Origin: Candidatus Adlerbacteria bacterium
GTDB taxonomy: Bacteria > Patescibacteriota > Minisyncoccia > Phycocordibacterales > SBAW01
Direction of reading: 5' to 3'
NCBI GenBank assembly: GCA_903851045.1
Contig: CAINNF010000020.1
Span: forward strand, 1 to 54,157
DNA length: 54,157 bases
Shown here: positions 6,161-37,000 of the stretch, one piece after another
How positions within the stretch are numbered: the first letter of the stretch is position 1
Layout of the letters: each line of letters starts with the position of its first letter
Notes under the pieces: model-generated
Database searches by the model: none
What the model was told of the DNA's origin: nothing
What the model saw: only the letters and a program-made list of their open reading frames with translations
Position numbers and translations under genes: made by a program

Positions 6161-6188
6161 TTGACTTCTGAGTGTGGGCGGCTATACT
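6161..6188 (+). promoter_or_regulatory. Sigma-70-like promoter (TTGACT - 16 nt - TATACT)
   Basis: ttgact 6161-6166, 16-nt spacer, tatact 6183-6188. The predicted TSS at ~6195 coincides with an ATG at 6196. Confidence 0.6.
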
Positions 6189-6194
6189 GTGCCC

Positions 6195-6263
6195 TATGAC
6201 TGCTTAACGGTAGACACCCCAAAAGAGTTCGAGGGTGTCCCGCCGTAGGCGGGCTTGTTTTTT
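6195..6263 (+). ncRNA. Candidate ~70-nt promoter-to-terminator transcript (small RNA, or terminated leader of the 16S gene)
   Basis: Bounded by the 6161-6188 promoter and the 6239-6263 terminator. Contains hairpin GACACCC(6213-6219)/GGGTGTC(6233-6239). The only ORF is ATG ACT GCT TAA (3 codons). Confidence 0.3.
6239..6263 (+). terminator. Intrinsic terminator
   Basis: cccgcc-gta-ggcggg hairpin followed by cttgtttttt. Confidence 0.65.
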
Positions 6264-6462: not shown

Positions 6463-6492
6463 GAGAAGCGAAATTTCTCTTGTTCCGTTTTA
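6463..6492 (+). other. 5' strand of the pre-16S processing stem (RNase III-type)
   Basis: gagaagcgaaatttctcttgttccgtttta pairs over ~28 bp with 8202-8233 (one mismatch, one bulge, one G-U; paired by hand). Confidence 0.7.
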
Positions 6493-6550
6493 CCCCGAGG
6501 GTCGCGCAAGCGACATCGAGGGGTTCATCTATTGGACCTGGTAACAGGTC

Positions 6551-8010
6551 TTTAATCAGAGTTTGATCCTAGCTCAGGATGAATGCTGGCGGCGTGGATG
6601 AGTCATGCAAGTCGAACGCCCCGCAAGGGGAGTGGCAGACGAGGTAGTAATACGCAGGTACGCACCGAAGAGTCGGGCATAGCTAGCCGAAAGGCTAGGT
6701 AATTCCCGATGGTCCCTCCGGGGTAAAGTTTTTTCGCTCTTTGAGCGGCCTGCGCGGTATCAGTTAGTTGGTGAGGTAATGGCTCACCAAGACGATGACA
6801 CCTAGGGGAGCTGAGAGGCTGACCCCCACCGATAGCACTGAGACACGGGCTATACATCTACGGATGGCTGCAGACGAGAATATTCCGCAATGGGCGAAAG
6901 CCTGACGGAGCGACGCCGCGTGGTTGATGAAGTCCTTCGGGACGTAAAAACCTTTTATGGAGGAGGAAATTTTGACGTTACTCCATGAATAAGGGGCTCC
7001 TAACTCTGTGCCAGCAGGAGCGGTAATACAGAGGCCCCAAGCATTATCCGGAATCACTGGGCGTAAAGGGTGTGTAGGCGGTCGTGTTAGTCTTTCGTAA
7101 AAGCTTTTCGGCTTAACCGAGAAACTGCGGAGGAAACGGCACGACTGAGAGGTTGCGAGAGGTAAAGGGAACTCATAGTGTAGGGGTGAAATCCGTTGAT
7201 ATTATGGGGAACACCAAATGCGAAGGCACTTTACTGGCGCACACCTGACGCTGAGACACGAAAGCGTGGGAATCGAACGGGATTAGATACCCCGGTAGTC
7301 CACGCCCTAAACGATCCGAACTAGCTTTACGGAGTATCGACCCTCTGTGAGGCGTAGCTAACGCGTTAAGTTCGGCGCCTGGGTAGTACGATCGCAAGAT
7401 TAAAACTCAAAGGAATAGACGGGGACTTGCACAAGCGGTGGATCATGCGGCTCAATTCGATGGCAAACGAAAAACCTCACCAGGGCTAGACATCCAGACG
7501 AAAATCCTCAGAAACGAGGACCTTCGCAAGACGGCTGGACAGGTGATGCATGGTCGTCGTCAGTTCGTGGCTTGAGTTGTTCCCTTCAGTGGGGTAACGA
7601 ACGCAACCCTCGTTGCCTGTTTTATTAGTCAGGCGAGACTGCCCCCTCACGGGGGAGGAAGGTGAGGATGACGCCAGATCAGCATGTCCCTCTGATGCCC
7701 TGGGCTGCACGCATGATACAATGGTCAAGACAACGGGTCGCGACGGGGTAACCCTGAGCTAATCCTTATAAACTTGGCCCCAGTTCGGATTGAGGTCTGC
7801 AACTCGACCTCATGAAGCCGGAATCGCTAGTAATCGCTGGTCAGCTATACAGCGGTGAATACGTTCTCAAGTCTTGTACTCACCGCCCGTCAACTCAAGG
7901 GAGTCGGGAGTACCCGAAGCCCGCCTTACGGCGGTCCACGGTAAACTCGATGACAGGGAGTAAGTCGTAACAAGGCACGGGTAGCGGAAGCTGCTCGTGG
8001 AATAATTCAA
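6551..8010 (+). rRNA. rrs: 16S ribosomal RNA, short and divergent; the 3' end is uncertain
   Basis: Landmarks: agagtttgatcctagctcag from 6558, gtgccagcaggagcggtaatac from 7008, attagataccccggtagtcc from 7282, aaactcaaaggaatagacgggg from 7403, tgtactcaccgcccgtca from 7875, aagtcgtaacaagg 7962-7975. Helix 45 is cacgggtagc-GGAA-gctgctcgtg at 7976-7999. Confidence 0.93.
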
Positions 8011-8201
8011 ATTGACTACGTTTTGTGCCTCAATTGAGCACAAAACTAATTGGCGATCTCATCACTTCGCAAGAAGAGATGTTAGGGATGATACTACTAA
8101 TCCTATATTGTAGTCGCTGTTCGAAAGGACGTACCTTCCATACGCGTCAGGAAGGAGATGACCTCTGTAGTATCTCTCTAAAATAGGGAGAGAACAGGAG
8201 G

Positions 8202-8233
8202 TAAAGAACGGAACAAGAGAAAGTTCGTTTCTC
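8202..8233 (+). other. 3' strand of the pre-16S processing stem
   Basis: taaagaacggaacaagagaaagttcgtttctc is complementary to 6463-6492. It lies ~200 nt past helix 45. Confidence 0.7.
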
Positions 8234-8237
8234 TTTT

Positions 8238-8270
8238 AGTCGACCGAAGCTCAAAGGAGCGAAGGCGACT
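8238..8270 (+). repeat. GC-rich hairpin repeat, copy C
   Basis: agtcgaccgaagctcaaaggagcgaaggcgact. Near-palindrome with the same CGAAGCTC..GAGCGAAGGCG core. Confidence 0.55.
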
Positions 8271-8371
8271 AGGTTGGCCCTACTTCGCATACAGCTACGT
8301 AGGGTACGGTGTGATCTCGTTACAAAAACCAGTAAAACCCCTGACGGGGATTTTCGGCGTTACTGTGTGTA

Positions 8372-8400
8372 TAAGAAAAAGACCGCCCTTTCGAGCGGCC
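8372..8400 (-). terminator. Probable intrinsic terminator of the minus-strand speD-like gene
   Basis: On the minus strand: gccgc-tcgaaag-ggcggt hairpin followed by ctttttcttat. Lies 30 nt downstream of the stop at 8430. Confidence 0.45.
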
Positions 8401-8429
8401 TTTCGTCACGCAGCGTCAGGCGCTGGAGA

Positions 8430-8918
8430 CTATTTGCGCAGGACACAGACGAACGAGTAGTCAGTGGCACCGAAGAACGCCCGCGCGAACTCCGCGACCA
8501 CCCACGGGTTGTAGTACTTGCAGGAGAAGATGTCGGGATACGCTGCGCCGGTTTGGTCGGCGAAGTGACCGGTGATACAAGATGTCTCGATAAGTTGGAC
8601 CAGCGAAAGTCCCGAGACCCTTGGGTCTTCGCCGAAGTTCACGACCACACAGTCACCGAAACGGTTCATGCCGATGAGCTCACAGAGCTCGATGGTGAAG
8701 CGCTCGACGGCGGCAGGGTCGCTGATCGTGCGAGGGTCGCAGTGATGGAGGTCGATGGAGGTCGACAATCCCCACGCGTCTTCTGCTTCGTACGCTGTTC
8801 GTATCGCAGTGTCGTCACGACTGGTGGCCAAGGGGTCGTCACTGTCGTATGCACCAAGCACTCGTGTCATCAATCCATCCTTCGTATCTTGGAGAAAAAG
8901 AACAGGTACCAGTACCAA
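8430..8918 (-). CDS. S-adenosylmethionine decarboxylase-like pyruvoyl enzyme (SpeD/SpeH family); substrate uncertain
   Basis: WGLSTSIDLHHCDP...LCELIGMNRFGDCVVVNFGEDPRVSGLSLVQLIETSCITGHF...AYPDIFSC aligns by eye with small bacterial/archaeal AdoMetDC proenzymes (..VISESHLTIHTWPE..). The start may be the internal ATG at 8870 (MTRVLGAYD...). Confidence 0.65.
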   Translation of the reverse strand: MVLVPVLFLQDTKDGLMTRVLGAYDSDDPLATSRDDTAIRTAYEAEDAWGLSTSIDLHHCDPRTISDPAAVERFTIELCELIGMNRFGDCVVVNFGEDPRVSGLSLVQLIETSCITGHFADQTGAAYPDIFSCKYYNPWVVAEFARAFFGATDYSFVCVLRK

Positions 8919-9085: not shown

Positions 9086-9118
9086 CCCGCCGAAGCTCGC
9101 GTAGCGAGCGAAGGCGGG
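9086..9118 (+). repeat. GC-rich hairpin repeat, copy D (its 3' arm overlaps the tRNA-Ile acceptor stem)
   Basis: cccgccgaagctcgcgtagcgagcgaaggcggg, with outer CCCGCC/GGCGGG and inner GCTCGC/GCGAGC pairings. Confidence 0.55.
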
Positions 9119-9186
9119 CATAGCTCAGCTGGTAGAGCATTCGACTGATACTCGAAAGGTCCTAGGTTCGATCCCTAGTGCCCGCA
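9114..9186 (+). tRNA. tRNA-Ile (anticodon GAU); CCA not encoded
   Basis: Hand-folded cloverleaf. Acceptor GCGGGCA/UGCCCGC. D arm GCUC-AGCUGGUA-GAGC. Anticodon arm UUCGA-CUGAUAC-UCGAA. Variable loop AGGUC. T arm CUAGG-UUCGAUC-CCUAG. Discriminator A. Confidence 0.95.
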
Positions 9187-9202
9187 CAGAAACATACAGA
9201 TT

Positions 9203-22040: not shown

Positions 22041-25000
22041 TTGCGCCCACCATGCATGCAAGCACCGATTACTATGTGGCGCACTAAAAGATGGAAACAG
22101 GTCGTCATGACGGTCGTGGCTCTTTGCGGTGTTGCCTACGTGCTGTGGCTCACGAGCGGTTTCGTATTGGCGTTTCGGCAAGTGAAGCGTGCTCATGTGT
22201 TCCCGACCAACGTTAACGCTATCGGTTGGAATAATGGCCAAGGCGCTCTGACGCAAGAGTTGCCGCCGCAGGCACCGTACGCGAGTTTTTTACAAAAAAA
22301 TTCCGCATATCTGTTCGTCGCGTCCTCTTCGTCAGCGATTATCGTACCGACCTCAGGCGGAGGAGGGGGAAGTGTTATCGATACGAGTCAACGTTCGGAT
22401 GGGACAACGAATGATGCATTAAGTGCGACCGCTACGCAAGCGACTACCACACAAGCGACTACCACACAAGCGGCCCCGACATCCCAGACATTTTCCGATG
22501 CCTCGACGACGCCCGCACAAGTGCCGGCTCCCGTCAGCGACACACCCGCTTCAGCCCCACTACCGACCTCATCAGACACGTCCTCACAGGTATTCTTGCC
22601 GATACCTCCCATCATCTCGCCTACGTCCACCCCCTCCACGCCCCCACCTCCGAGCGCTCCGGCACCGAGTAGTCAGGAGAGCACGACCACGAGCCTGCGT
22701 TCGGACCCCGCTTCGGACATGGCATTGCGGCTGGAACGAGTCGTTGCTGCGGTTTTCTCTGCTATCATCCCCCAAGCGTTTGCGACGTCGACCAGCGATA
22801 GCACCACGACACCAGTGGTCAGTACATCCACGCAAGATACGGACACGATTTCTGCGGCTCCCTCCGTGGACACTTCTGCGACTGCGGTCGCTACCTGTAC
22901 CGTGCTTGGAGACACGTGCCATATGTTGGAGTTCAGTGGTTTTTCGGTCGGAGGTTCTTTAACGAACAAAGAGTTTCAAAAAGCGGAGCTCAAGTTCTCG
23001 TTCGCACAGATGGCGAGCGAGTCGGACATGCGGGATGGGAAACTGTCGGTCCGCTACTTCCATAATGGACGGTGGCATAGTGCGGGGGAGATATATCTCA
23101 ACCAGGAACTGTCGAACGCGACGAACGGAGGCTATTTCACGCAGACGCTCGATGATGTCTCTGCGTGGGACGATCTAAGCGATATGCGAGTCGTGTTCGA
23201 GTATGAGCCGGGTGACGGTGCCAGTCCCGTGCAGCTCTACCTTGACGCAGTGTGGATCGACGCGGTCTATGTCGACCAGGTGCAGGACGTGCTCTCCGGC
23301 AATGTCAGTGACCCGACCGATGCTCCACAAAACATCTCGTTTGATGTTGCTTCGAACGTACAAGACTCGAACACGCTCATGTTGGACGATGGCAGCACGG
23401 TGTCGTTCCCGTTCCTGGATGCGCTCGATGATTCTTTGAGCGTACGTGTCGATCGGTCAACTTACCAAGGGTCGGCAACATCGACGGTCGTGTTCGCCAG
23501 CGTGACCAACACCGGGTCGAGCAAGGATACGTTCACCCTGTTCGCCTCGTTCCCTGGTGCGGTCGGGTCGGTGGCCGATGTGGCACAGTATCTGCGAAAT
23601 GTTCCGAACGAAGCGACCACGACCCAGACGAGCGACGTGACCTACTACTGCGATGTGGGATGGCAGCTCGCGTCGTCGATCGGACAGTACACCTGTGCTT
23701 CGACCAACGAAACGTATGTGTGTTCGACGGTGAGCGATACGAAAGCGAATTGTTTGGTGTCGAACGTGCCGGTCGGGGTCTCGACCAGTACGACCTATGG
23801 CAGTCAGTGGGTGTCGATGGGTATACATACAACGTCAGGCGTAGATGCGAAGGTCTCATCAGGATTACCCAAGGGGTATCAGATCGCCTATACGAGCGAC
23901 CGGTCGTTCGATGTCTTACCGGGACAGACGGTATATTTTCGCGTGACGCTCTCGACCCCCGACACGGGCAAGGTACGTTTCGTGTTATCGGCGAAAGGGG
24001 ATAACTACTTCGGCGATGTCGACTCCATGCGTCTGCAAAGCGGGACCTACCTTAAAGCGCAATCGAAGATCAAACAACAGACCAAGACGAAGCATGACTA
24101 TCTCAACGACCAGCTTTCGGAACAGTCGGACTTTAATGTCGACGAGTTGCCACAGTTCCACTTCAAGTTCAAGACACAGCGTGACTTCTTCACACGAGTG
24201 AAGGATTTCTTGTTCGGCAGGACCGTGCCCTATGCCGTACGGAGCGCACACCTGCGTCACGCGAGCGGCGAGATCGAGCATTTGCCGGTCGATATCGAGT
24301 ACGGAGCAAATGATGAGTGGACGCTCAAGCTCGAGAAACAGCAACGAGCCTTTCGTCCCGGCAAATATTCGATAGATCTCTCGATGCAAGAGGGTGGCAC
24401 TTCTTATGTCGATACGGTCGACTTCTACTGGGGTGTGCTCGCGATGAACCCCGATAAGTCGTCCTATGCGCCGGGCGAGACGGCCCACTTCGACATCGGT
24501 GCGCTCGATGATAAAGGTGACACGATGTGCGATGCGCAACTACTGCTGTCGGTCACCGACCCATCGGGCAACACGAGCGATGTGCCTGTGGTGAGCGGTG
24601 GTGGCTGCGGGAAGAATAACGTCACCTCGTTGCCCGACTTCGTCGCAGACTACACCACGAAGGACGAAGGGACGTACTCGCTCACATTGTCTCGACTCGA
24701 CGATGCGGGCAATATCGTGACCAGTGTGAGCAACGCGCTGACGGTCGTTAAGAGTGCACCGTACACGATCACCCGCACGGGGCCGACACGCATCTACCCG
24801 AAGTCGGCTTACCTGATGCAGATGCATATCGATGCGCCGCAAGGGTTCACCGGCAGCGTGGTCGAGACGCTGCCGGAAGGGTTCACGGTCACCGCGACGG
24901 ACGGTGCGGTGCTGTCGCGTGTGAATGGGGCCATCGATCTCACCTGGAACGTCTCTATAACGAACGGCGGTGGGAAGGACCTTTCGTACACCTTCAAAGC

Positions 25001-28000
25001 TCCCGAAGTGAGTCCGTACATGTACGCGCTCGGGCCACTGCAGCTGAACGACACCACCGGTACCGTCTTTACCGAAGGTCGGGCATGGCAGATCGCATCG
25101 GACGCCACCGCGATAGCGACGGGAGTAGCCTGGCTCGCGGGGAACGCGACCACCTTCGGCTCGAACCTGAGCAGCACCACCGCGTCTGCGCTGACGTGGA
25201 ATCTTTCGGCAGATTATGATTCAGCCTACTATGCATACTCGAGTAGCTCGCCTTCGCAGTTGGTCATCAATAAACCCGGAGATTACTTAGTGGCTTTGAC
25301 GCTGCCGATGGAGTCTACTGCAGCAGGAAGTTTCCGCACCGCTATCGAAGCCGACATACGCGTCAACGGCAACAAAGTGAACGCGGGAGTGTCGCGCGGG
25401 TATATTAGGACAAACAGCACTATGTTCGAGGTCTCAGATCACTTGTACCTGTTGCTACATAATCTGAACACCGGAGACTATATCGAGAGTTATGTGCACA
25501 ATCTGAGCACCAACAACGACACTATTAACATCGGTACTCAGGCAAGTCTGTACGCCGAGTATATCGACAACAGTCAAAATGTGTACTTTGGCGTCGGCAC
25601 CACAACTTCAAATGGTACCAATCTTAACCCCACAGCAAGTTCGACGGTGGTGTGGTACGATGACCCGACGCTTGGTAGAAAAGATTCGAATTATACGCAC
25701 ACGAATACTGACAACGCAGCTTCGAGCACGATCACACTTGCTGCCGCGGGGTCGTACTTGGTGTTGGTGAACGTTCCTCTGGATGGCGCAGTCACGAGTG
25801 CGAGTCCACGAGCCGATGTGCTGCTCAACAACATAAACGCGAGCGGCGCCGAATTTAAACAAGGATATATCGCCAATAGTACTGGTGTCACCGACTCGTC
25901 CTTGCAGTTTAGTGGTGTGGTAACGGCGACCACGACCAATGAGAGACTCCAGGTGAACCTCATCGTAGCTGGTGCAACAGGGGCGCTCACCGCGCTGAAC
26001 GATCAAGCATCGATCTATATCCAGCAACTACCCGCTTCAGGGATATATGTCGCGTCAGCGACGTCGACCTCCAACAACCTCACCACCAGTAATAACTGGA
26101 ACATTACTCCCGCGACAACCACACTGTGGACCACCGATCTTATCAAAGACGCGACCATATATGCCCACTCTACTTCGACACGATCGCAGCAGATCACCGT
26201 CGGCGCACCGGGCGACTACCTCTTGGCGCTCAACGACTCGCACACGGTCAACACCACGGTGACGAACCAGATAACGCAGGTGTTAGTGAACGGCACTCCT
26301 GTTGTTGGGGCGCAGACGAAATCGCATGACATCTACGCTAACACGCAAACGTCGGGTTCGTTGGTGTATCTCTTGCGCAACTTGGCTGCAAGTAGCACGG
26401 TAACGGTCACTACGGTATTAGACTCTGCAACGGGTATAGCGGTTGAAGACAAACCAGCGCTGCTCATGTTGTGGCACAAATCGGCGCAGAGTTCCTTCAT
26501 ACAAGATACGGAACGATGGTATACGAACGTCAACGCCGAACCACCCACCGACCCATGGCCGTCGGGCGGTATCGACCTGAACGAAGGCGACCCCATCACC
26601 ACGGGTGTTGCGGTGAAGTCGGGAGATGTCCTGCGCCTTCGTATGGCGCTCACGGCAAACGTGAACACGATCGCGGGTGCGGACTCGTTCAAACTCCAAT
26701 ATGCGCCGGGGACGACGTGCTCGCTCGCGCTCGCATGGACGGACGTCGGTGCTATCGGCAGCGGCTCCATCTGGCGCGGGTACCACAACGCAGCGCTCTC
26801 GGCGGGGCAAACGCTCTCGACGACCACGCTCTCGGTATCGTCCACGACCGAGACGTACGAAGAGCAGAACCCTTCTGCGGTCACGCCGCACTCGGTCGTT
26901 GTTGGGACGGACGCCGAGTGGGATTGGGTGTTGCAGGATAATGGCGCGTCGGTCGGGACCAACTACTGCTTCCGTATGGTGCAGTCCAGCGGACAGGTGC
27001 TCAAGGACTACAACGATTATCCGCAGCTCATCACGAACAACACGCCCGATGTGCCGACGCTTGATGCACCGTTCGATAACGAGAAGACCGCGAGCACGAG
27101 TCCATGGTTCACGTTCACGACGTCGGACGACAATGGTGATGATATCCATTACGAGGTCCAAGTGAGTACGGACCCTGCGTTCGGTTCCACGGTCATCGAC
27201 GAGGATTCCGCGACCTATTACACTAAATTTACGAATACGACGAACTCGGCGGACAAAGCTCCGTTCGGTGGTGGCCAGATCATCCAGTACACTCCGACGA
27301 TCTCACTTTCCAGTGGTACGACCTATTGGTGGCGGGTGCGCGCGAAGGACCCGAACGGGACGAACACCTGGAGCAGTTATTCGTCGGCGCAAAGTGTGAC
27401 GATCGATTCGTCGGTTACGGTGTCGACCTGGTTCCAAACGACACAAGGGCAGTTCGCGAACGACACGCTTTCGAACGTGAGCGCAACGGGTTCAAACGAT
27501 GTGCAGCTGTCGGGAGCGAACACGAGCGGTACCATCTATTCGCCGCCGATTGACTATACGGTGCACACCTCGGGCAACTCGTGGGGCACCGTGTCGTGGA
27601 CGAACACGCAAAGCGCGGGTAATACCATCACGTACCATGTCGAATATTTTACATCGACGAGTACATGGGCGGTCATTCCCAATAGCGATCTGCCGGGCAA
27701 CTCGACCGGGACGACGACGGGACCCATTATTCTGACGCAACTGGATCCAAGCGTGTACAATCTTATCCGTGTTCGAGGCGATTTTGTGAAGACCACGACG
27801 ACCCCGATACTCAGCGATTGGACCGTCTCGTGGGCACTTTCCGTCGCTCAGCCGTCGCTCATAACCTTGTTCGATAACGAAAAGACGGCGACAACGACGC
27901 CGACGTTCACGTTCACGACGACCGACCCGCAAGGGGATGATCTGCAGTATCAGCTCGAATGGTCGACCGATGCGACGTTCGCGACCGGTGTGACGATACG

Positions 28001-31000
28001 CACTTCGGGTACCGACCCTGGCTTTCTGAACACCGCATCATCTACCGATACATCACCGTTCGTATCGGGCAACACCGTTAGTTTTACGGTACAATCCGCT
28101 GATCGGCTCGCGAGCAGTACGACCTATTGGTGGCGCGTGCGCGCCGAGGATCCCAACGGAGGAAAAGCCTACTCGCTGTGGTCATCACCGCAGAGCTTTA
28201 CAACCGACACAACCGTACAGTCTTCGACCTGGTTCCAAACGACGAACGATCAATTTGGCGAAGACTTTCTCACACGCACCGGTACTTCGGGTGGTGGCGT
28301 GACCGCGACCTCGACGACCGGCAATATCGCCATCTATCGTGCGAACGCCGGGAACGACCCGATCACCACCGCTACGTTCAACAACTATTGGGATACGACG
28401 GTGCGCCAAGACAGTATCTTCTCGCTTCCCAGCACGACGACCATCCAACTACTTGCAACGGGTCACTACGCGGTCATGTACGGGTTGCGGTTCCGTTCAT
28501 CCAGCGGCACGAACCGTTCTGAGATCCAATCATATCTCAACCTCGCTGGTAACAGTCTCCCGATCGGTTGGTCACAGGCGTTCATCCGGCGCAATGGTGC
28601 TGCCACCCAAGGCTTCTCCTCGGGAGGGGGTATCATCAATGTGACGAGTTACAACGCACCGCTCATCGTACAATCCTTCAGGACCGATACGAACACGACG
28701 GCGGGTGTGATGCGAGAGGCGACGTCGTCCGGCGTATCGATCATCAAGTTGGATGATGCGTGGAGTTATGCGCGTTTGAGCAAAGCGACCAAGCAGACAG
28801 GGCCGATCTCGACGTCATGGATGCCCGTGACCTGGGACCACGAGGATGAGATTGACACGACCGCCTACGCCCACGCAAGTGGTGCCAGTGGCCTGACGCT
28901 CAAGAACCCTGGGCACTATCTGGTGTTCGCGAACACGTACGGATCGCTCAGAACCAACGTTTCCTCTATGGTCGACCAGAAGCTGAAGCTCGACAATGCC
29001 GATATCGACGGCAGCTTTACGACGGTGTTCATGAACGGTAACGCGAACTCCGACGGTGACTACCAAGGTGCCGCATCGGTCGGCACCATCATCCAGTCGA
29101 CGACCACGAACCAGGTGTTGACCGTCCAGGTGGCGCGCAGTCTCGGTACGGCGGCGTGGACGATCGACGGGACGTTCAGTGGTGCGTACGTCAACCGCTC
29201 GGGACTCACGGTGGTGAAGCTTCCTGATGCGGATTTTATTCGTCTGCAAAATTCGACGAGCACGAACATGGACCCGACCGCACTCACACCACTCACGTGG
29301 AATACCGAAGCCGAGAAGGATGCCTCGTTCACACACAGTACGACCACTACCACGAACAAAATCACCGTGAACACTGCGGGTGATTACCTGTTCCTTACGG
29401 CCAACTACGCGGCACCCGGTACGACCGCGAACGCACAGCCGATGCAGGGGTGGCGCAAGAACGCCGGTACGCTCGAGTTGTACGGGCAATCCGGGAGCTT
29501 CAATAGCACCGCGGTCACCGACACCGGCTCGTTCGGTGGTATCGTGTACCCCGGCGTTGCGGCCACTGACTACTTCGAATCCATCGCCCAGGCGCGCGGC
29601 ACCACGGGCACCGTGGGCGAGACGAAAAAAGGTATACAGGGGCTGCGTATCGGGTCACTCGCTGAAGCGGATACGAATCCAAAGACGGTCGAGTCTCCCG
29701 ACATCGTATTTAGTAGTGGTACCGGACCGAAATGGTCGACATTCTCGTGGAACGACTCGCGACCCGCATCGACGAATATCGTCTACCAGGTACTGTACCT
29801 CACCGCCTCCAGTACCTATGCGCTCGTGCCGGACGCGGTACTCCCTGGCAACTTCAACGGCTTCTCTACGACGTCGTCATCGGTGAATATCAGCAACCTG
29901 AACCGCACGACCTATGGGACACTGCGTACACTCGCCACCTTCACCTGTGCCGCAGGTAATTGTCCGACGCTCAACGACTGGACGGTCAGCTGGGCGCAGG
30001 GCATCAACGTGTCGGGTATCGCAAAGACGTTCGATCAGTCGACCAATGCCACCTACGGCACGGTCGGGGTCGCGGTCAATGGCGTCCTGCAAGCAGGGAA
30101 GACCGGTACCATCTCCTCCAGCGGTACCTGGACGATACCGAACGTGACGGCGTTCACAGGTGACGTCATCACTGTGTTCGTGAGTACGACCACGAGCGCG
30201 ACCCGTGCGGTCGCGGTCACCAAATATACTAGTACGAACGACATCACCGGCATGAAGCTCTACCAGATGCACCTTACGCTCGGCTCCGACGATAACCCGA
30301 CGCTCACGAACACCGACATCTCCCAGTACGACAATTCGGTCTCGGGTAACAGCGCCATCTTCGATGATGTGTCTGGCGGGACTCTCAATGTGTGCGCAGG
30401 CACCGCGTGTGCGAACGCGCGGCTTCTTGTCTCGTCCGGCACTGTGTATGAGCCGGGGGCCTCGGGTGGTAACGTGACGACACCGAATATACAAATCGAT
30501 GGGACACTCATTGCTGATGCGAATACGATTACCGTCACTCGCTCGTGGAAGAATAATGCCACGTTCAACAAAGGTTCATCCACGGTCATCTTCGCTGCAA
30601 CCAGTACGAACGAAAGTATTGATTCGACCAACGCGACGTCGAGTGCGGCGTTCAACAATGTGACGTTCGGCCAGACCTCAAGCACTGCGACATGGACCCT
30701 ACTGAGTCCGCTCTACGCGAGCAGTACGCTTGCAATCAATTATGGGACACTGCAAAACGGCGCGAATCCGATGGTACTCTCGGGCGACTTAACCATAGGG
30801 GCGAGTGGTTACTTCAGTCATGGTACCGGCACGACCACGTTCATGGGGACGGGGACTAATGTATGGACCGACAATAATTCGACCACCCAAGATATGGGCA
30901 CGGTCGTCATCGATGGTACGACGAAGACGGTGCAACTTGGTTCTGCCGTCAAGGCGACGAACATAACCATCGGCGCTGATGATACGCTCAATGCGAGCAG

Positions 31001-34000
31001 TGGCAACTACGGTATTACCGTCACTGGTAATTGGACGAACAACAATGTGTTTACTGCGCAGAACGGCACCGTGACCTTCGTCGCGACGACGACGGGCAAG
31101 ACCATCACGCCAGGCACATCAAGTTTTTATAACCTTACCTTCAATGGTGCTGGAGGCAACTGGGCGTTCGCGGGCGGTACGGTGACGGTTGGGAACAACT
31201 TCACCGTAGCGACCGGTACGGTCACGCTCCCGACCGGCACCACGACCGTGGCAGGATCCTTTGACGCATCAGGTGGTATTTTTGTGCACAACAACGGTGC
31301 CGTGTTGTTCACGTCGGGGCTATCGCAGACCATCAACCCAGGCGTGTCGAGCTTCTACGACCTCGCGTTCAACGGGTCGGGTGCATGGACCTTTACCGGT
31401 ACCAACGCGACCAGTTCGCGCAACACCACCATAACGTCCGGCAGTGTGACATTGCCGTCCGGCATCTTTGCTGTCGGCGGATCGTTCATAAAGAATGGCG
31501 GCTCGTTCTCGCACAACAACGGCACGATCAAGTTCACCGCCTCGACCGCACAAACGATCAACCTTAACGCGTCGAGCGCCTACAACCTGCTGTTCACGGG
31601 GAGTGGCGCCTGGGCATTCCTCGATACGAACGCGACGATTGGTGGTTCGGTCACGTTCCAAGGTGGTACGACAACACTTCCTTCAGGTACGCTCACCATA
31701 GGCGGATCCTTGGTCAGTGCTGGTGGTGCCTTTGCACATAACAACGGTACGGTCAGCTTTACCGCGGCATCGACCGGGTTTGCGGTGACCCCCGGCTCCT
31801 CATCGTTCTACAACCTCATATTCAACTCATCGTCCGGTGGTTGGACCATCACGGGTAATGCGACCTCGACGAACAACACGACGATCAACAGTGCTTCGAG
31901 TTGGACGTTGAACCCTGGTACGACGCTCGCGGTCGGCGGAACGTTCGCTAACAATGTCGGCGGCTCGACGACGACCTTCACCAATTCGACGCTCTACCTC
32001 AATTCAGGCACGAGTTATTCTCTGGATACGAAAACCGCGGGCGGGGATGTGTACGGCACGCTCCTCGTCGGTGCGAACACGAACGTCCGCATGTGGAACT
32101 CCTCGGCTGCGACCACGACGGTCAACTCGACCGGCTCGCTCTACTCGCAGAACCATGCGGGCGTATCTGGAGCGCTCTATATATATGGAGCATTCACGAG
32201 TTCGAGCAACGAATACTGGAGCTACTCGAATGACTTCGATGGGACGGCGCTCACGGGCGGCAGTCAGCGCCAGGTGCAAGTACGTATCGCGAGCAGCTCG
32301 AGCGTCACCTTCTCGGGAGGGACGCTCAAGATGGTCGGAACCACCACCGCCACGACCACGATCAGCAACCAGGGTATCGGCACCTATTCGTTCAGTGTCA
32401 CGGGGGGTACGCTCAATGCGCAGTATTACCAGATAAGTAGTACGACGGCGGCAGGACTCTCCCTGTCGGGTACGACGAACATCACATCGCTCAGTAATGG
32501 CGACTTCACGTTGTCGCTTCCGACCGGGGGCACCTCGATGACCATCAACTCGACCGTGATCGACCAGAATCCACTCCTCCAGATCCAACAGGTTCGATTC
32601 GCGACCTCGACCGGTGTCACGAGCGGATACAACGTGACCGAAGTCGGTACGCCAGCCTCGTACTGGTGGTTCAGGAATCACTACGGCAACTTCGCGGGAG
32701 AGGCGTACGATAATGATCCAGGTGGTAACCCCGGCTACATCCGATGGGACGACTCTGGGTACAACATCACCGTATCGGGTCACGTCTATGCGGACCACGG
32801 GTCGACGCTGATTGGTAATCCGCCGTGCGATGGCTCGACGGCTGTCGTGACGCTCGTGGTCGGAACGACCACTTACTCTGGTTCGTGCGGTCTGCTCACT
32901 GGTGCGTACAGTATCTCGAACGTGCAGTTCACTGGTGATGTCGACCTCGTCGCCTATCTGAACACCAACGGTGGTAAGCGCGCGGTCACGGTGACCAAGA
33001 CGCCGACCGCGAGCATCTCCGACCTCGATCTCTATCAGAATTCCCTTATCGTCCGACACGAAGGAGTGACGCCTATCACGATCACCGATCTCGCAGGGTT
33101 CGATTCCACGCGCGACTCGGACGTGTTCTTCGCCGCCGCGACCAGCACCATGACGCTCGTCACGCAACCGAACACCGAACTGTATGTGTGGCAGGGCAAG
33201 ACGTTCGCGCCAGGTGGAAATGTGACGCTCCAGTCAGGAGGGTCGGGGAGCGCGCTCGATGGCCGTCTCTATCTTGCGACGAACGCGACCTTCACAGCGG
33301 TCGGTACGCAGTCGCACTCGATCGGCGGAGGTCTAACGATCGGTTCGGGCGCGACCTTCACGGCGGCGAACTCGACGGTGACCTTCACGGCGACCACGAC
33401 GGGCAAGTCCATCACTGCTTCGTCGCCACTCACGCTGTATAACCTTGTGTTCAACGGTACGGGCGGTCAGTGGTCGCTCGATAGCAGTGCGCTCACGACC
33501 GTGACCCATGCGCTCACGATGACCGCCGGCACATTGGTTGGGACGGGAGACATGACCGTCCAGTCAGGCGATGTGACCGGTAGTGGCACCATAGCAATGA
33601 CCAATGGTACGTTCACGATCAGTAGTACCGGCAACTTCGGGTCGAGTAATACGTGGCAATTCAAGAACCTAACCTTCGGGGATGGTGTGTCTACCAACAC
33701 GACGACGAAGACCGGTGCAGGTACGACGACGGTGACCGGCGCATTGACCATCGCCACGAACCAGACGCTCAATGCAAGTTCCTCCGCTTGGTTGCTCACG
33801 GGTGGCGGAACGCCGTTCGTTATCGGTGGCACGCTCAATCCGCAAAGTGCTCCGTTCACCTATGCGGCCACCACCGCCACCACTATCGCGAACGCCAATT
33901 ACGCCGCGCTCATATTGGCACCCTCGGGTGCTGGAAGTCCGACCTACACGCTCAGTGGTGGCACGCCGACCATCGGGATTCTTACCGTGGGCGACGGAGC

Positions 34001-37000
34001 GAACCCGGTCACGGTAACGGCTGATACGAACGATCCATCGATCGCACTTTCGGGCACCATGCGCATCAGTGCGGGCGCGACCTATGTCGCATCGAATGTC
34101 GGTGCGTTCACGGTCGGTGGGAGCTGGATCAATGCGGGGACCTTTACCAACTCCGGCGCGGCAGTGCTCTTTACTGCGACGGCGACCGGTAACACTATCC
34201 AGCCCGGCACCTCGCCGTTCTATGATGCGACCTTCAACTCGTCTTCGGGTGGGTGGACCATTGCGAGCAATGCGACCACGACGCATGACCTGACGCTCAC
34301 GAGCGCGACGAACTTCACCGTGAATCCGAACACGACCCTTGCGGTCGGAGGAACCTTCACGAACAATGTGAGCGGCTCGGCGACCGCGTTCGCGTCCTCG
34401 ACGCTCTACCTCTACTCGGGAACCAGTTACAGTATCAACACGAAATCAGCGAGCACCGAGACCTACGGCACGCTTCTCATCGATGCGAACACCAACATAC
34501 GTATGTGGAACTCATCGGCCGCGACCACGACGGTCAACTCCTCAGGCTCGCTCTACTCTATGAACCATGGGGGCGTGAATGGTGCGCTCGATATCTGGGG
34601 TACGTATACACGAAGTACTGGCAGCGACTATTGGAGCTACTCGACGGACTTTGATGGGACGGATATCTCGGGTGCGCCGCGCAAGGTCAACGTATCTATC
34701 GCGTCGAGTTCGTCGCTCACGTTCTCGGGAGGAGTACTTGATATCATCGGTGGGCCGACCGCATCGACGACCGTCACCAACCAGGGTGCGGGTACGTACT
34801 CGCTCAGCGTGAGCGGCGGCACGTTGTATGCGAACTATTATGAGTTCAGGAACCTCGGCGCGAGCGGTCTCAATCTTTCTGGAACTCCCACCATCACGTC
34901 GCTCAGTTACGGTGACTTCCTGCTTGGTATCGCCGGAGGAACGGCGATGACGGTTACGGGTTCTGTTATCGACGCGAACCCACTTAAGGTCATCAAGTAT
35001 GTAAAGTTCGCGACGACGACGAGTATCGGCGGCTACAACGTGACCGAGATCGGGACCCCGAGCAGTTCGTGGAAGTTCAACCTGCACTACGGCAATCTGG
35101 CGGGCGAAGCGTTCGACAACGATCCAGGCGGAAACCCCGGGTATGTACGTTGGGACGACAGTGCGTCGCAGATCACCATATCGGGGCACGTGTATTCGGA
35201 CGAAGGCACGACGGTAAGTACGGTGTGCGACAACTCGACCCAGAACGTGAAGCTCGTGGTCGAAGGCTCAACGAGCTTCACCTCGTCCTGCAATAGCTCC
35301 ACGGGTGCATACAGTATCCCGGGAGTGTCGTTCAACCCGGGTGACACGTTGACGTTGTATCTCGACACCAATGGCGGAAAGCGCGCCGCGGACGTGTCGG
35401 TCGACCCCATCTCGAACATTACCGGCATGGACCTCTACGAGAATCGCGTTATCGTCCGTCACGAGGACACGGTGCCGATCACCATCGCCGATATGTCGCA
35501 GTACACGTCCGCCAACGATAGCGACATACCGTTCTCGACGGTCATCAGCAGTACCAATACGCTGACGCTGCCGCCGAACACCAAACTTATCGTGTGGACG
35601 GGCAAAACGTTCGCACCTGCGGGTAATGTGACCATCCAGTCCGGCGGTGGTGCGAACACGTATGACGGCACGCTCGAGGTGCAAGCGGGCGGATCGTTCT
35701 CCGCGGCCAGCACACAGACACACACCATCGGGGGCAGTCTCATCTTCGATTCGGGTGCGACGTTGACGAGCGCGAACTCGACCTTTACCTTTACAGCGAC
35801 CACGACGGGCAAGACCATTACACCTCCCGCGAGTTCATCGTTCTACAACATGACCTTTAACGGTGCTGGCGGCAACTGGGCGTTCTCTTCGAGCGCCACG
35901 ACGACCAACGACTTTACGGTGACCGCGGGTACCGTGACGCTCCCAACCGGCACGCTGTCGGTCGGTGGGTCACTACAGAACAACGGTGGTACGTTGGTGC
36001 ATAACAACGGCTCTGTCCTGCTCACGGCAACCGCAAGCGGCAAGACCATCAAGGTCGGGACCTCGACGCTGTACAACCTGACCTTCAACGGGGTGAGTGG
36101 CGGGTGGACGTTCTCGGACGCCAATGCGACCACATCGAACACGCTCACGATCTCGAACGGCGCAGTGACGCTTCCGTCCGGTACGCTCTCGATAGGGAAC
36201 TCGTTCCTCAATACGGGCGGCACGTTCACGCACAACGGTGGTACGGTGAAGTTCACGGCGACCGCGACGGGTAAACAGATACAGGCGAACAGCTCGAGCT
36301 TCAATACGCTCTTGTTCAACGGTATCGGTGGTAGTTGGACCATGCTCGACACGAATCTCACGGCGCTCGGTGATGTGACTGTCGCGACCGGCACCGTCGT
36401 GTTCCCGCCGGGCGTGTTCACGGTCAGTGGGTCCCTCATCGCTTCCACCGGAGCGTTCAGTAATAATAGCGGTACGGTGACGTTTGCTGCGACCGCGACT
36501 GGAAAGAGTGTGACTCCGGGTACTTCTTCCTTCTATAATCTTATCTTTGACTCTACCTCCGGTGGTTGGACCGTTACCGGCAACGCCACCTCAACGAACA
36601 ATACGACGATCAATAACGCCTCGAGCTTTATCGTGAGTCCGGGAGTGACGCTCGCGGTCGGCGGCACCTTCACCAACAACGGGAACATTTCGAACACGAC
36701 GTTTGCCACCTCGACGCTCTACCTCTACTCGGGTACCAGTTATTCGATTAACACGAAATCAGCGAGCACAGAGACCTACGGCACGCTCTTGATCGGTGCG
36801 AACACGAACATCCGCATGTGGAACTCCTCCGCAGCGACGACCACGGTTAACTCAACCGGCTCGCTCTATTCTATGGATCATGGAGGTGTGAACGGAGCGC
36901 TGAACATCTGGGGTACGTACACGCGAAGTGCGGGGAGCGACTACTGGGACTACGCGACCGACTTCGACGGCACGGCGCTCGGCGGCGGTAGTCGACCAGT

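Follow-up and report, generated by a model that had tools for sequence, protein, structure and literature searches.

The 16S rRNA 3' tail of an Adlerbacteria-type bacterium carries a mutated anti-Shine-Dalgarno core and is followed by a covarying, pseudoknotted trailer

Introduction

Loss of the anti-Shine-Dalgarno (anti-SD) sequence has been described in a subgroup of Parcubacteria that lacks ribosomal protein uL1 (Tsurumaki, Saito, Tomita, Kanai 2022, RNA 28:1041; PMC9297842). The 16S rRNA gene analyzed here lies in a 54,157-nucleotide stretch of Candidatus Adlerbacteria DNA (the window; assembly GCA_903851045.1, contig CAINNF010000020.1) and resembles that subgroup in its Parcubacteria lineage, in the absence of CCUCCU from the 16S 3' end and in that uL1 was not found; nothing essential differs, and this genome is one more member. 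The loss is real and already known: the first-pass annotation of this DNA had called it unusual, which is not so in the sense of new, since it has been published for this group, although the replacement tail, its intermediates, the trailer behind it and the leaderless promoters are not described there (PMC9297842). The reading favored here, with a probability of roughly 0.9, is that the gene is functional, present once and standing alone in the genome of an Adlerbacteria-type CPR bacterium (Parcubacteria/Paceibacteria), with an ordinary tail whose anti-SD core is mutated and, behind it, an ancestral folded spacer.

Bacteroidota genomes are SD-poor, with few upstream SD motifs and SD-free starts, and keep CCUCC in their 16S rRNA; the present genome shares the scarcity of SD motifs but has lost CCUCC itself. 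Leaderless mRNAs are abundant in Actinobacteria, Deinococcus and many archaea, and the likeness here is that many genes have a -10 hexamer ending ~6-7 nt ahead of the start codon. In E. coli, ~33 nt of 3' trailer are enclosed by the RNase III stem of pre-16S rRNA. Long complementarity between 5' leader and 3' trailer encloses the 16S here as well, and an RNase III gene is present; the differences are that ~187 nt of trailer, with conserved hairpins and a pseudoknot, lie inside the stem and that no 23S follows the 16S. Mitochondrial mRNAs are leaderless. The mammalian mitochondrial SSU rRNA likewise has no anti-SD after helix 45 (PMC10582724), but it belongs to an unrelated lineage and is a far more reduced rRNA, whereas the bacterial model is fully matched here.

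Results and Discussion

The tail after helix 45

The bacterial SSU model (RF00177) has a single match in the whole 1.25-Mb assembly, making the gene in the window the sole 16S copy (Table 1). Helix 45 was confirmed to be intact, with all positions paired around its GGAA loop (10/10). It is followed by GGAAUAAUUCAAAU and not by GGAUCACCUCCUUA, as had been read from the letters: in a residue-by-residue scan of positions 7780-8330 with RF00177, model positions 1521-1533 (GGAUCACCUCCUUu, 13 unpaired) were aligned at this place, the alignment ending at 8012, and no misplaced normal tail came to light. A script scan of 8000-8233, that is, through the processing-stem strand, found no CCTCC, and CCTC at 8028 and 8162 only. 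A search of the genome for a separate gene fragment with GGAUCACCUCCUUA yielded only scattered approximate matches, as expected by chance. On this alignment the tail is the ordinary post-helix-45 tail with its CCUCC core mutated to AUUCA, and we infer a mature 16S 3' end near 8012. With the core changed in this way, the ribosome would be unable to form a Shine-Dalgarno helix. RNA contigs from three metatranscriptome runs compared with positions 7300-8500 proved to be short stretches of conserved 16S from a mixture of organisms and are not attributable to this one, so that the end of their cover at ~8037 is uninformative.

Table 1. Features of the 16S rRNA unit, in window coordinates.
Feature	Coordinates	Strand	Basis
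Processing stem, 5' strand	6463..6494	+	Reverse complement of 8200-8233, 34 nt at 88% (blastn and script)
16S rRNA gene	6551..8012	+	RF00177, 1348.5 bits, model positions 1-1533 (full length)
Helix 45, GGAA loop	7976..7999	+	10/10 standard pairs; high posterior probability on the model's helix 45
3' tail GAAUAAUUCAAAUU	8000..8013	+	cmscan alignment; AUUCA (8005-8009) at the place of the CCUCC anti-SD core
Predicted hairpin P1, AAUU loop	8020..8046	+	MFE fold; RNAalifold compensatory changes, 10 congeners
GGCGAUC motif (8052-8058) and predicted hairpin P2 (8060-8081, GCAA loop)	8052..8081	+	GGCGAT invariant in alignment A1; fold
Predicted H-type pseudoknot	8085..8114	+	S1 8085-8089/8100-8104; S2 8093-8097/8110-8114
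Predicted hairpin P4, CCUUCC/GGAAGG, conserved AUACGCGUCA loop	8134..8155	+	Fold
Anti-SD look-alike AUGACCUCUGUA	8158..8169	+	9/12 match; paired in MFE fold
Predicted hairpin P5	8173..8193	+	Fold; RNAalifold compensatory changes
Processing stem, 3' strand	8200..8233	+	Core CGGAACAAGAGAAAG conserved across the order
GC hairpin between T runs (candidate terminator)	8334..8354	.	Consensus scan, pattern match only

Conservation of the variant tail

Among 30 related genomes, the 16S 3' end is present at 16 loci, which represent several families of the order, and all 16 carry the same tail, with the consensus GAAYAAUUCAAAU or a close variant directly after helix 45. An exact-pattern scan detected it in 33 further named species representatives, recorded as Ca. 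Adlerbacteria, Kaiserbacteria, Paceibacterota and Paceibacteria; some carriers have discordant record titles (Saccharibacteria, Nomurabacteria), apparently assigned loosely. The first of the two readings offered by the first-pass annotation, a 16S rRNA with no anti-SD, is therefore supported, and as a lineage-wide trait. One canonical tail was encountered within the order (G319), at a contig edge and next to a helix 45 unlike that of the other Paceibacteria sampled; it is probably a contaminant.

The same comparison bears on the suspicion, raised at the outset, that the region is an assembly artefact. The contig does come from a metagenome-assembled draft in 25 pieces, but a chimeric join, an assembly error or a decaying pseudogene has a negligible probability: the tail and the trailer architecture behind it recur in dozens of independent assemblies, the contig is identical over 7981-8500 in a DNA run from another study, the gene matches the full-length model at 1348 bits as the only 16S in the genome, and covariation in the trailer (see below) points to selection.

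How the variant arose can be followed within the class. In a sample of 401 genomes, helix 45 is followed by GGAUCACCUCC in 91 and by a GAWYNWUUC tail in 25; the rest matched neither pattern, many of these assemblies being without a 16S 3' end. Flanks from 20 class genomes form a graded series, from the canonical GGAUCACCUCCUUUCUAGGGAG through GGAACAUUUCCUUUUUAGGGAG, GGAUCAUUUCU... and GGAACAAUUCU... to the GGAAUAAUUCAAAU of the order itself. Intermediate tails in class relatives include GGAUCAUUUC and GGAACAUUUCC, and both GGAUCAUUUC and GGAACAUUUCCUUUUUAGGGAG can be aligned with GGAUCACCUCCUUUCUAGGGAG base for base. These intermediates identify the variant as the same tail in an unchanged position, its core C residues replaced.

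Conservation is stronger in the variant tail than in the trailer, so the tail has some function. Part of the constraint may come from the precursor. In other orders, the tail core and the bases next to it pair with the first part of the trailer in a small hairpin, the two strands of which change together (CUCCUU/AGGGAG, AUUUCU/AGAAAU, AUUCUU/AGGAAU, AUUUCCU/AGGGAAU). Such joint changes suggest two constraints on the tail, its ribosomal role and a structure in the pre-rRNA. The hairpin is convincing in those other orders only; single-sequence searches in the order studied here gave 3-5 bp, which is within chance.

The anti-SD look-alike is a chance match

The second reading in the first-pass annotation placed a structured insertion of ~150 nt between helix 45 and a degenerate CCUCU tail, which in the mature rRNA would still serve as a displaced anti-SD (ACCUCU, 8161-8166). 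What had suggested it is correct as far as it goes: ATGACCTCTGTA, at the look-alike position, is identical to the E. coli tail ATCACCTCCTTA at 9 of 12 positions by script, and this match to AUCACCUCCUUA lies ~33 nt before the stem strand. The weak enrichment of SD-like AGGAG upstream of ~6-9% of genes (see below) could also be cited in its favor. A match of 9/12 or better was, however, reached in 241 of 5000 shuffles of 8000-8201 (~5%), so that by itself it is within reach of chance; at the window-wide rate, 0.06 matches of this quality are expected per 202 nt. CCUC-like sequence is absent from the homologous place in all nine congeners aligned, and ACCUCU itself occurs in none of them. In the MFE fold it is paired with GGAGGU (8197-8202), and congeners have at the same place unrelated strands that are also able to pair (ACCGCC/GGCGGU, UCUCGC/GCGAGA, UACAUC/GAUGUA), each of them short and within chance when taken alone. 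Nor is any CCUCC conserved among the 16 trailers; CCUCC-like runs sit where relatives hold other, complementary sequences.

Two further observations weigh against a displaced anti-SD. The stretch immediately behind helix 45 is homologous, position for position, to the canonical tail, and sister families with canonical CCUCC in that position carry the same pseudoknotted trailer downstream, so that the trailer was not inserted into the tail. We regard use of the displaced sequence as extremely unlikely. The look-alike is a chance match and not a displaced anti-SD; it is likely to represent one strand of a spacer helix whose sequence varies among relatives.

A conserved, pseudoknotted trailer

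The RNA between the tail and the stem strand would fold into four hairpins with a compact pseudoknot in the middle, in the order tail, P1, GGCGAUC, P2, pseudoknot, P4, look-alike helix closing P5 and stem strand. Throughout the class, behind canonical tails too, a related GUCGAU motif precedes the pseudoknot in the trailer. The P4 stem varies in relatives (CCUCC/GGAGG, CCCC/GGGG, GGCCC/GGGCC) and its loop motif AUACNCGU is retained.

Single-sequence searches for pseudoknots do not discriminate between real and shuffled sequences, since chance alone produces stems of 4-6 bp; only covariation in ungapped alignments carries weight. In an ungapped 39-column alignment of 10 congeners (A2), all 100 of 100 cells of the pseudoknot pair, both sides have changed in 5 of the 10 pairs, and the resulting score was reached by none of 500 shuffles; in controls with the register slid, at most 43% of cells pair. 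A pseudoknot of the same topology was found in eight canonical-tail genomes. Families f27 and f91, which carry the canonical GGAUCACCUCCUUUCUA tail, have this topology at a distance of 83-163 nt downstream of helix 45, again with the A-rich third loop (for example GCCG-GG-UCCGA-CGGC-GAAA-UCGGA). The corresponding alignment (A3) pairs in 72 of 72 cells, with covariation in three of the four pairs of stem 1; as its segments were picked with a pattern fixing most of stem 2, only stem 1 and a single coupled change in stem 2 count. Pseudoknot loci include L070:153-182 and L129:197-226.

The covariation indicates selection, and the occurrence of the pseudoknotted trailer behind canonical tails makes it an ancestral feature that does not depend on whether the anti-SD is intact. 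Judged from these comparisons, the trailer of ~187-190 nt is an ancestral folded pre-rRNA spacer and not an insertion. It is single-copy: no extra or orphan copies of tail and trailer were found in this genome. No Rfam family matches it, a search of 7780-8330 at E values up to 10 returning only sub-threshold chance hits to snoRNA and miRNA families, and no description of the pseudoknot was found in Rfam or in the literature searched. The class-wide pseudoknotted trailer is apparently the only undescribed part of the present finding.

Maturation of the 16S precursor

The first-pass annotation had set the processing stem ~200 nt past helix 45, and it does lie far downstream, ~187 nt separating the tail from the stem strand. 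Complementarity between leader and trailer supports the stem, as does the RNase III gene (248 bits, above the cut-off); cleavage there is predicted. Most probably, RNase III would cut the stem and the spacer would then be removed during maturation. The genome has a YbeY gene and encodes a 373-aa protein in which three or more S1 domains were recognized; Era gave no hit above the cut-off, and bS21 was not found. Era is missing from most CPR bacteria (PMC10582724).

It seems unlikely that the trailer, or at least the tail hairpin and pseudoknot, is more than discarded spacer in the sense of a 3' extension kept on the small subunit at the SD-helix platform or of a docking element for 16S 3'-end enzymes. 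We give about even odds to the trailer being a cis-acting maturation element, a function much likelier than retention in the mature ribosome. For organisms without Era and several other assembly factors, the class-wide pseudoknotted spacer may be a way into the study of how the 16S 3' end matures.

Translation start signals

For 1061 long ORFs that do not overlap, the first ATG was taken as a crude gene start; these ORFs make up an incomplete gene list. On this set, the shortage of SD motifs in front of genes, noted earlier for the window, holds: SD 4-mers occur at -17 to -5 in 16% of genes versus 8% in a control window, and no purine-rich peak was found upstream of the 1061 starts. In the E. 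coli control (the same pipeline on 50 kb), SD motifs were found in 40% versus 7% and the -10 signal in 3%. The most enriched hexamers at -22 to -3 are TATACT (9-fold) and ATACTA, in company with TGGTA-type extended -10 contexts. TAnnnT peaks at -12, where it is present in 127 of 1061 genes as against ~20 per position elsewhere, and occupies -14 to -11 in 246 of the 1026 genes with a called upstream neighbor. TAnnnT at -12 has the geometry of leaderless transcripts, and by this sign about a fifth to a quarter of the genes look leaderless. Translation would most likely start on leaderless mRNAs, the -10 box ending ~6 nt before the ATG, and also by SD-independent initiation or by re-initiation inside operons. 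A pyrimidine immediately precedes the ATG in 73% of genes (T 43%, C 30%), a preference shared by four relatives.

Two relatives with the variant tail (G018 and G242) behave like this genome with respect to SD motifs and the -10 signal. In CCUCC-bearing relatives of the class, SD motifs occur in 12% versus 8% (G381) and 11% versus 5% (G214), and the -10 signal in 13-14% in both. Since these relatives are already SD-poor, low SD use predates the loss of the anti-SD. With leaderless-type promoters also in place in them, the loss looks like decay under relaxed constraint and not like a switch.

The near-invariance of the tail across the order could instead mean that it has become a new anti-SD, pairing with a new AU-rich ribosome-binding motif (the complement UUGAAUUAUU); GAATT and TGAAT are indeed about two-fold commoner at -20 to -3 than further upstream. 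The counts behind this figure are small (15-22 genes), however, and intergenic DNA is AT-richer than coding DNA. The predicted duplex energy of the tail with -22 to -3 is no better than with -60 to -41 (-2.61 vs -2.82 kcal/mol), 3.3% reach -6 kcal/mol or lower in both regions, and the predicted pairing is weaker than for shuffled tails. A new anti-SD is accordingly very improbable, and the mutated core is best read as a lost one.

A weak, clearly positioned SD-like signal is nevertheless present, AGGA occurring at -14 to -11 in 77 cases versus ~14 expected. Some of the SD-like sites match the canonical anti-SD over 8-9 nt (for example, CTAAGGAGGTGG) and have no partner in this ribosome. Genes with SD-like AGGAG (~6-9%) are mildly clustered, with 70 pairs within five genes versus 49 expected (p = 0.0025); of the clusters (G000 C17:24585-28182 and C19:2951-7300; L126, L127), one comprises four genes without a Pfam family and another an ABC transporter and TelA. 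The retained sites could stem from recent gene acquisition from SD-using donors or from old SDs that are slowly decaying.

uL1 and the loss of the anti-SD

No match to uL1 (PF00687) was found in this genome, which is 95.85% complete, nor in the variant-tail genomes G018 and G242. Of three canonical-tail relatives tested, two (G381 and G279) have uL1. The third, the complete, single-contig genome G214 of family f27, is without uL1 and keeps the canonical anti-SD, which indicates that the two losses are not strictly coupled. The present gene represents a further confirmed free-living-type bacterial ribosome unable to form the Shine-Dalgarno helix and bears on ideas about translation start without SD pairing. 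For gene calling in CPR genomes, it means that start prediction should not depend on ribosome-binding sites.

Setting of the gene and other observations

The 23S rRNA gene lies on a separate contig, so that the 16S forms a unit of its own. The 23S match (G000 C9:10253-13744) spans 3492 nt against a model of 2925 positions, an excess that makes one or more insertions probable. A tRNA-Ile(GAU) gene, the classical 16S-23S spacer tRNA, is located at 9114-9187, 1.1 kb downstream of the unlinked 16S on the same strand; it is possibly a relic of an old rRNA operon. Between the two lies a convergent AdoMet-decarboxylase gene (8430-8918), and the GC hairpin in front of it (Table 1) is likely, by its pattern, to act as a two-way terminator separating this gene from the 16S unit. 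Ahead of the 16S leader lies a strong candidate promoter-like site (TTGACT-16-TATACT, 6161-6188), followed at 6239-6253 by a GC hairpin with a T run.

The 530-loop region (7008-7026) reads GTGCCAGCAGGAGCGGTAA in place of ...CAGCAGCCGCGG...; this GA variant, or a CA variant, is common to the 25 related 16S genes checked, at a position within the common 515F primer site. The genomes of the relatives measure 0.5-0.9 Mb. Elsewhere in the window, a single ORF of ~5900 codons occupies positions 22056-39767 on the + strand.
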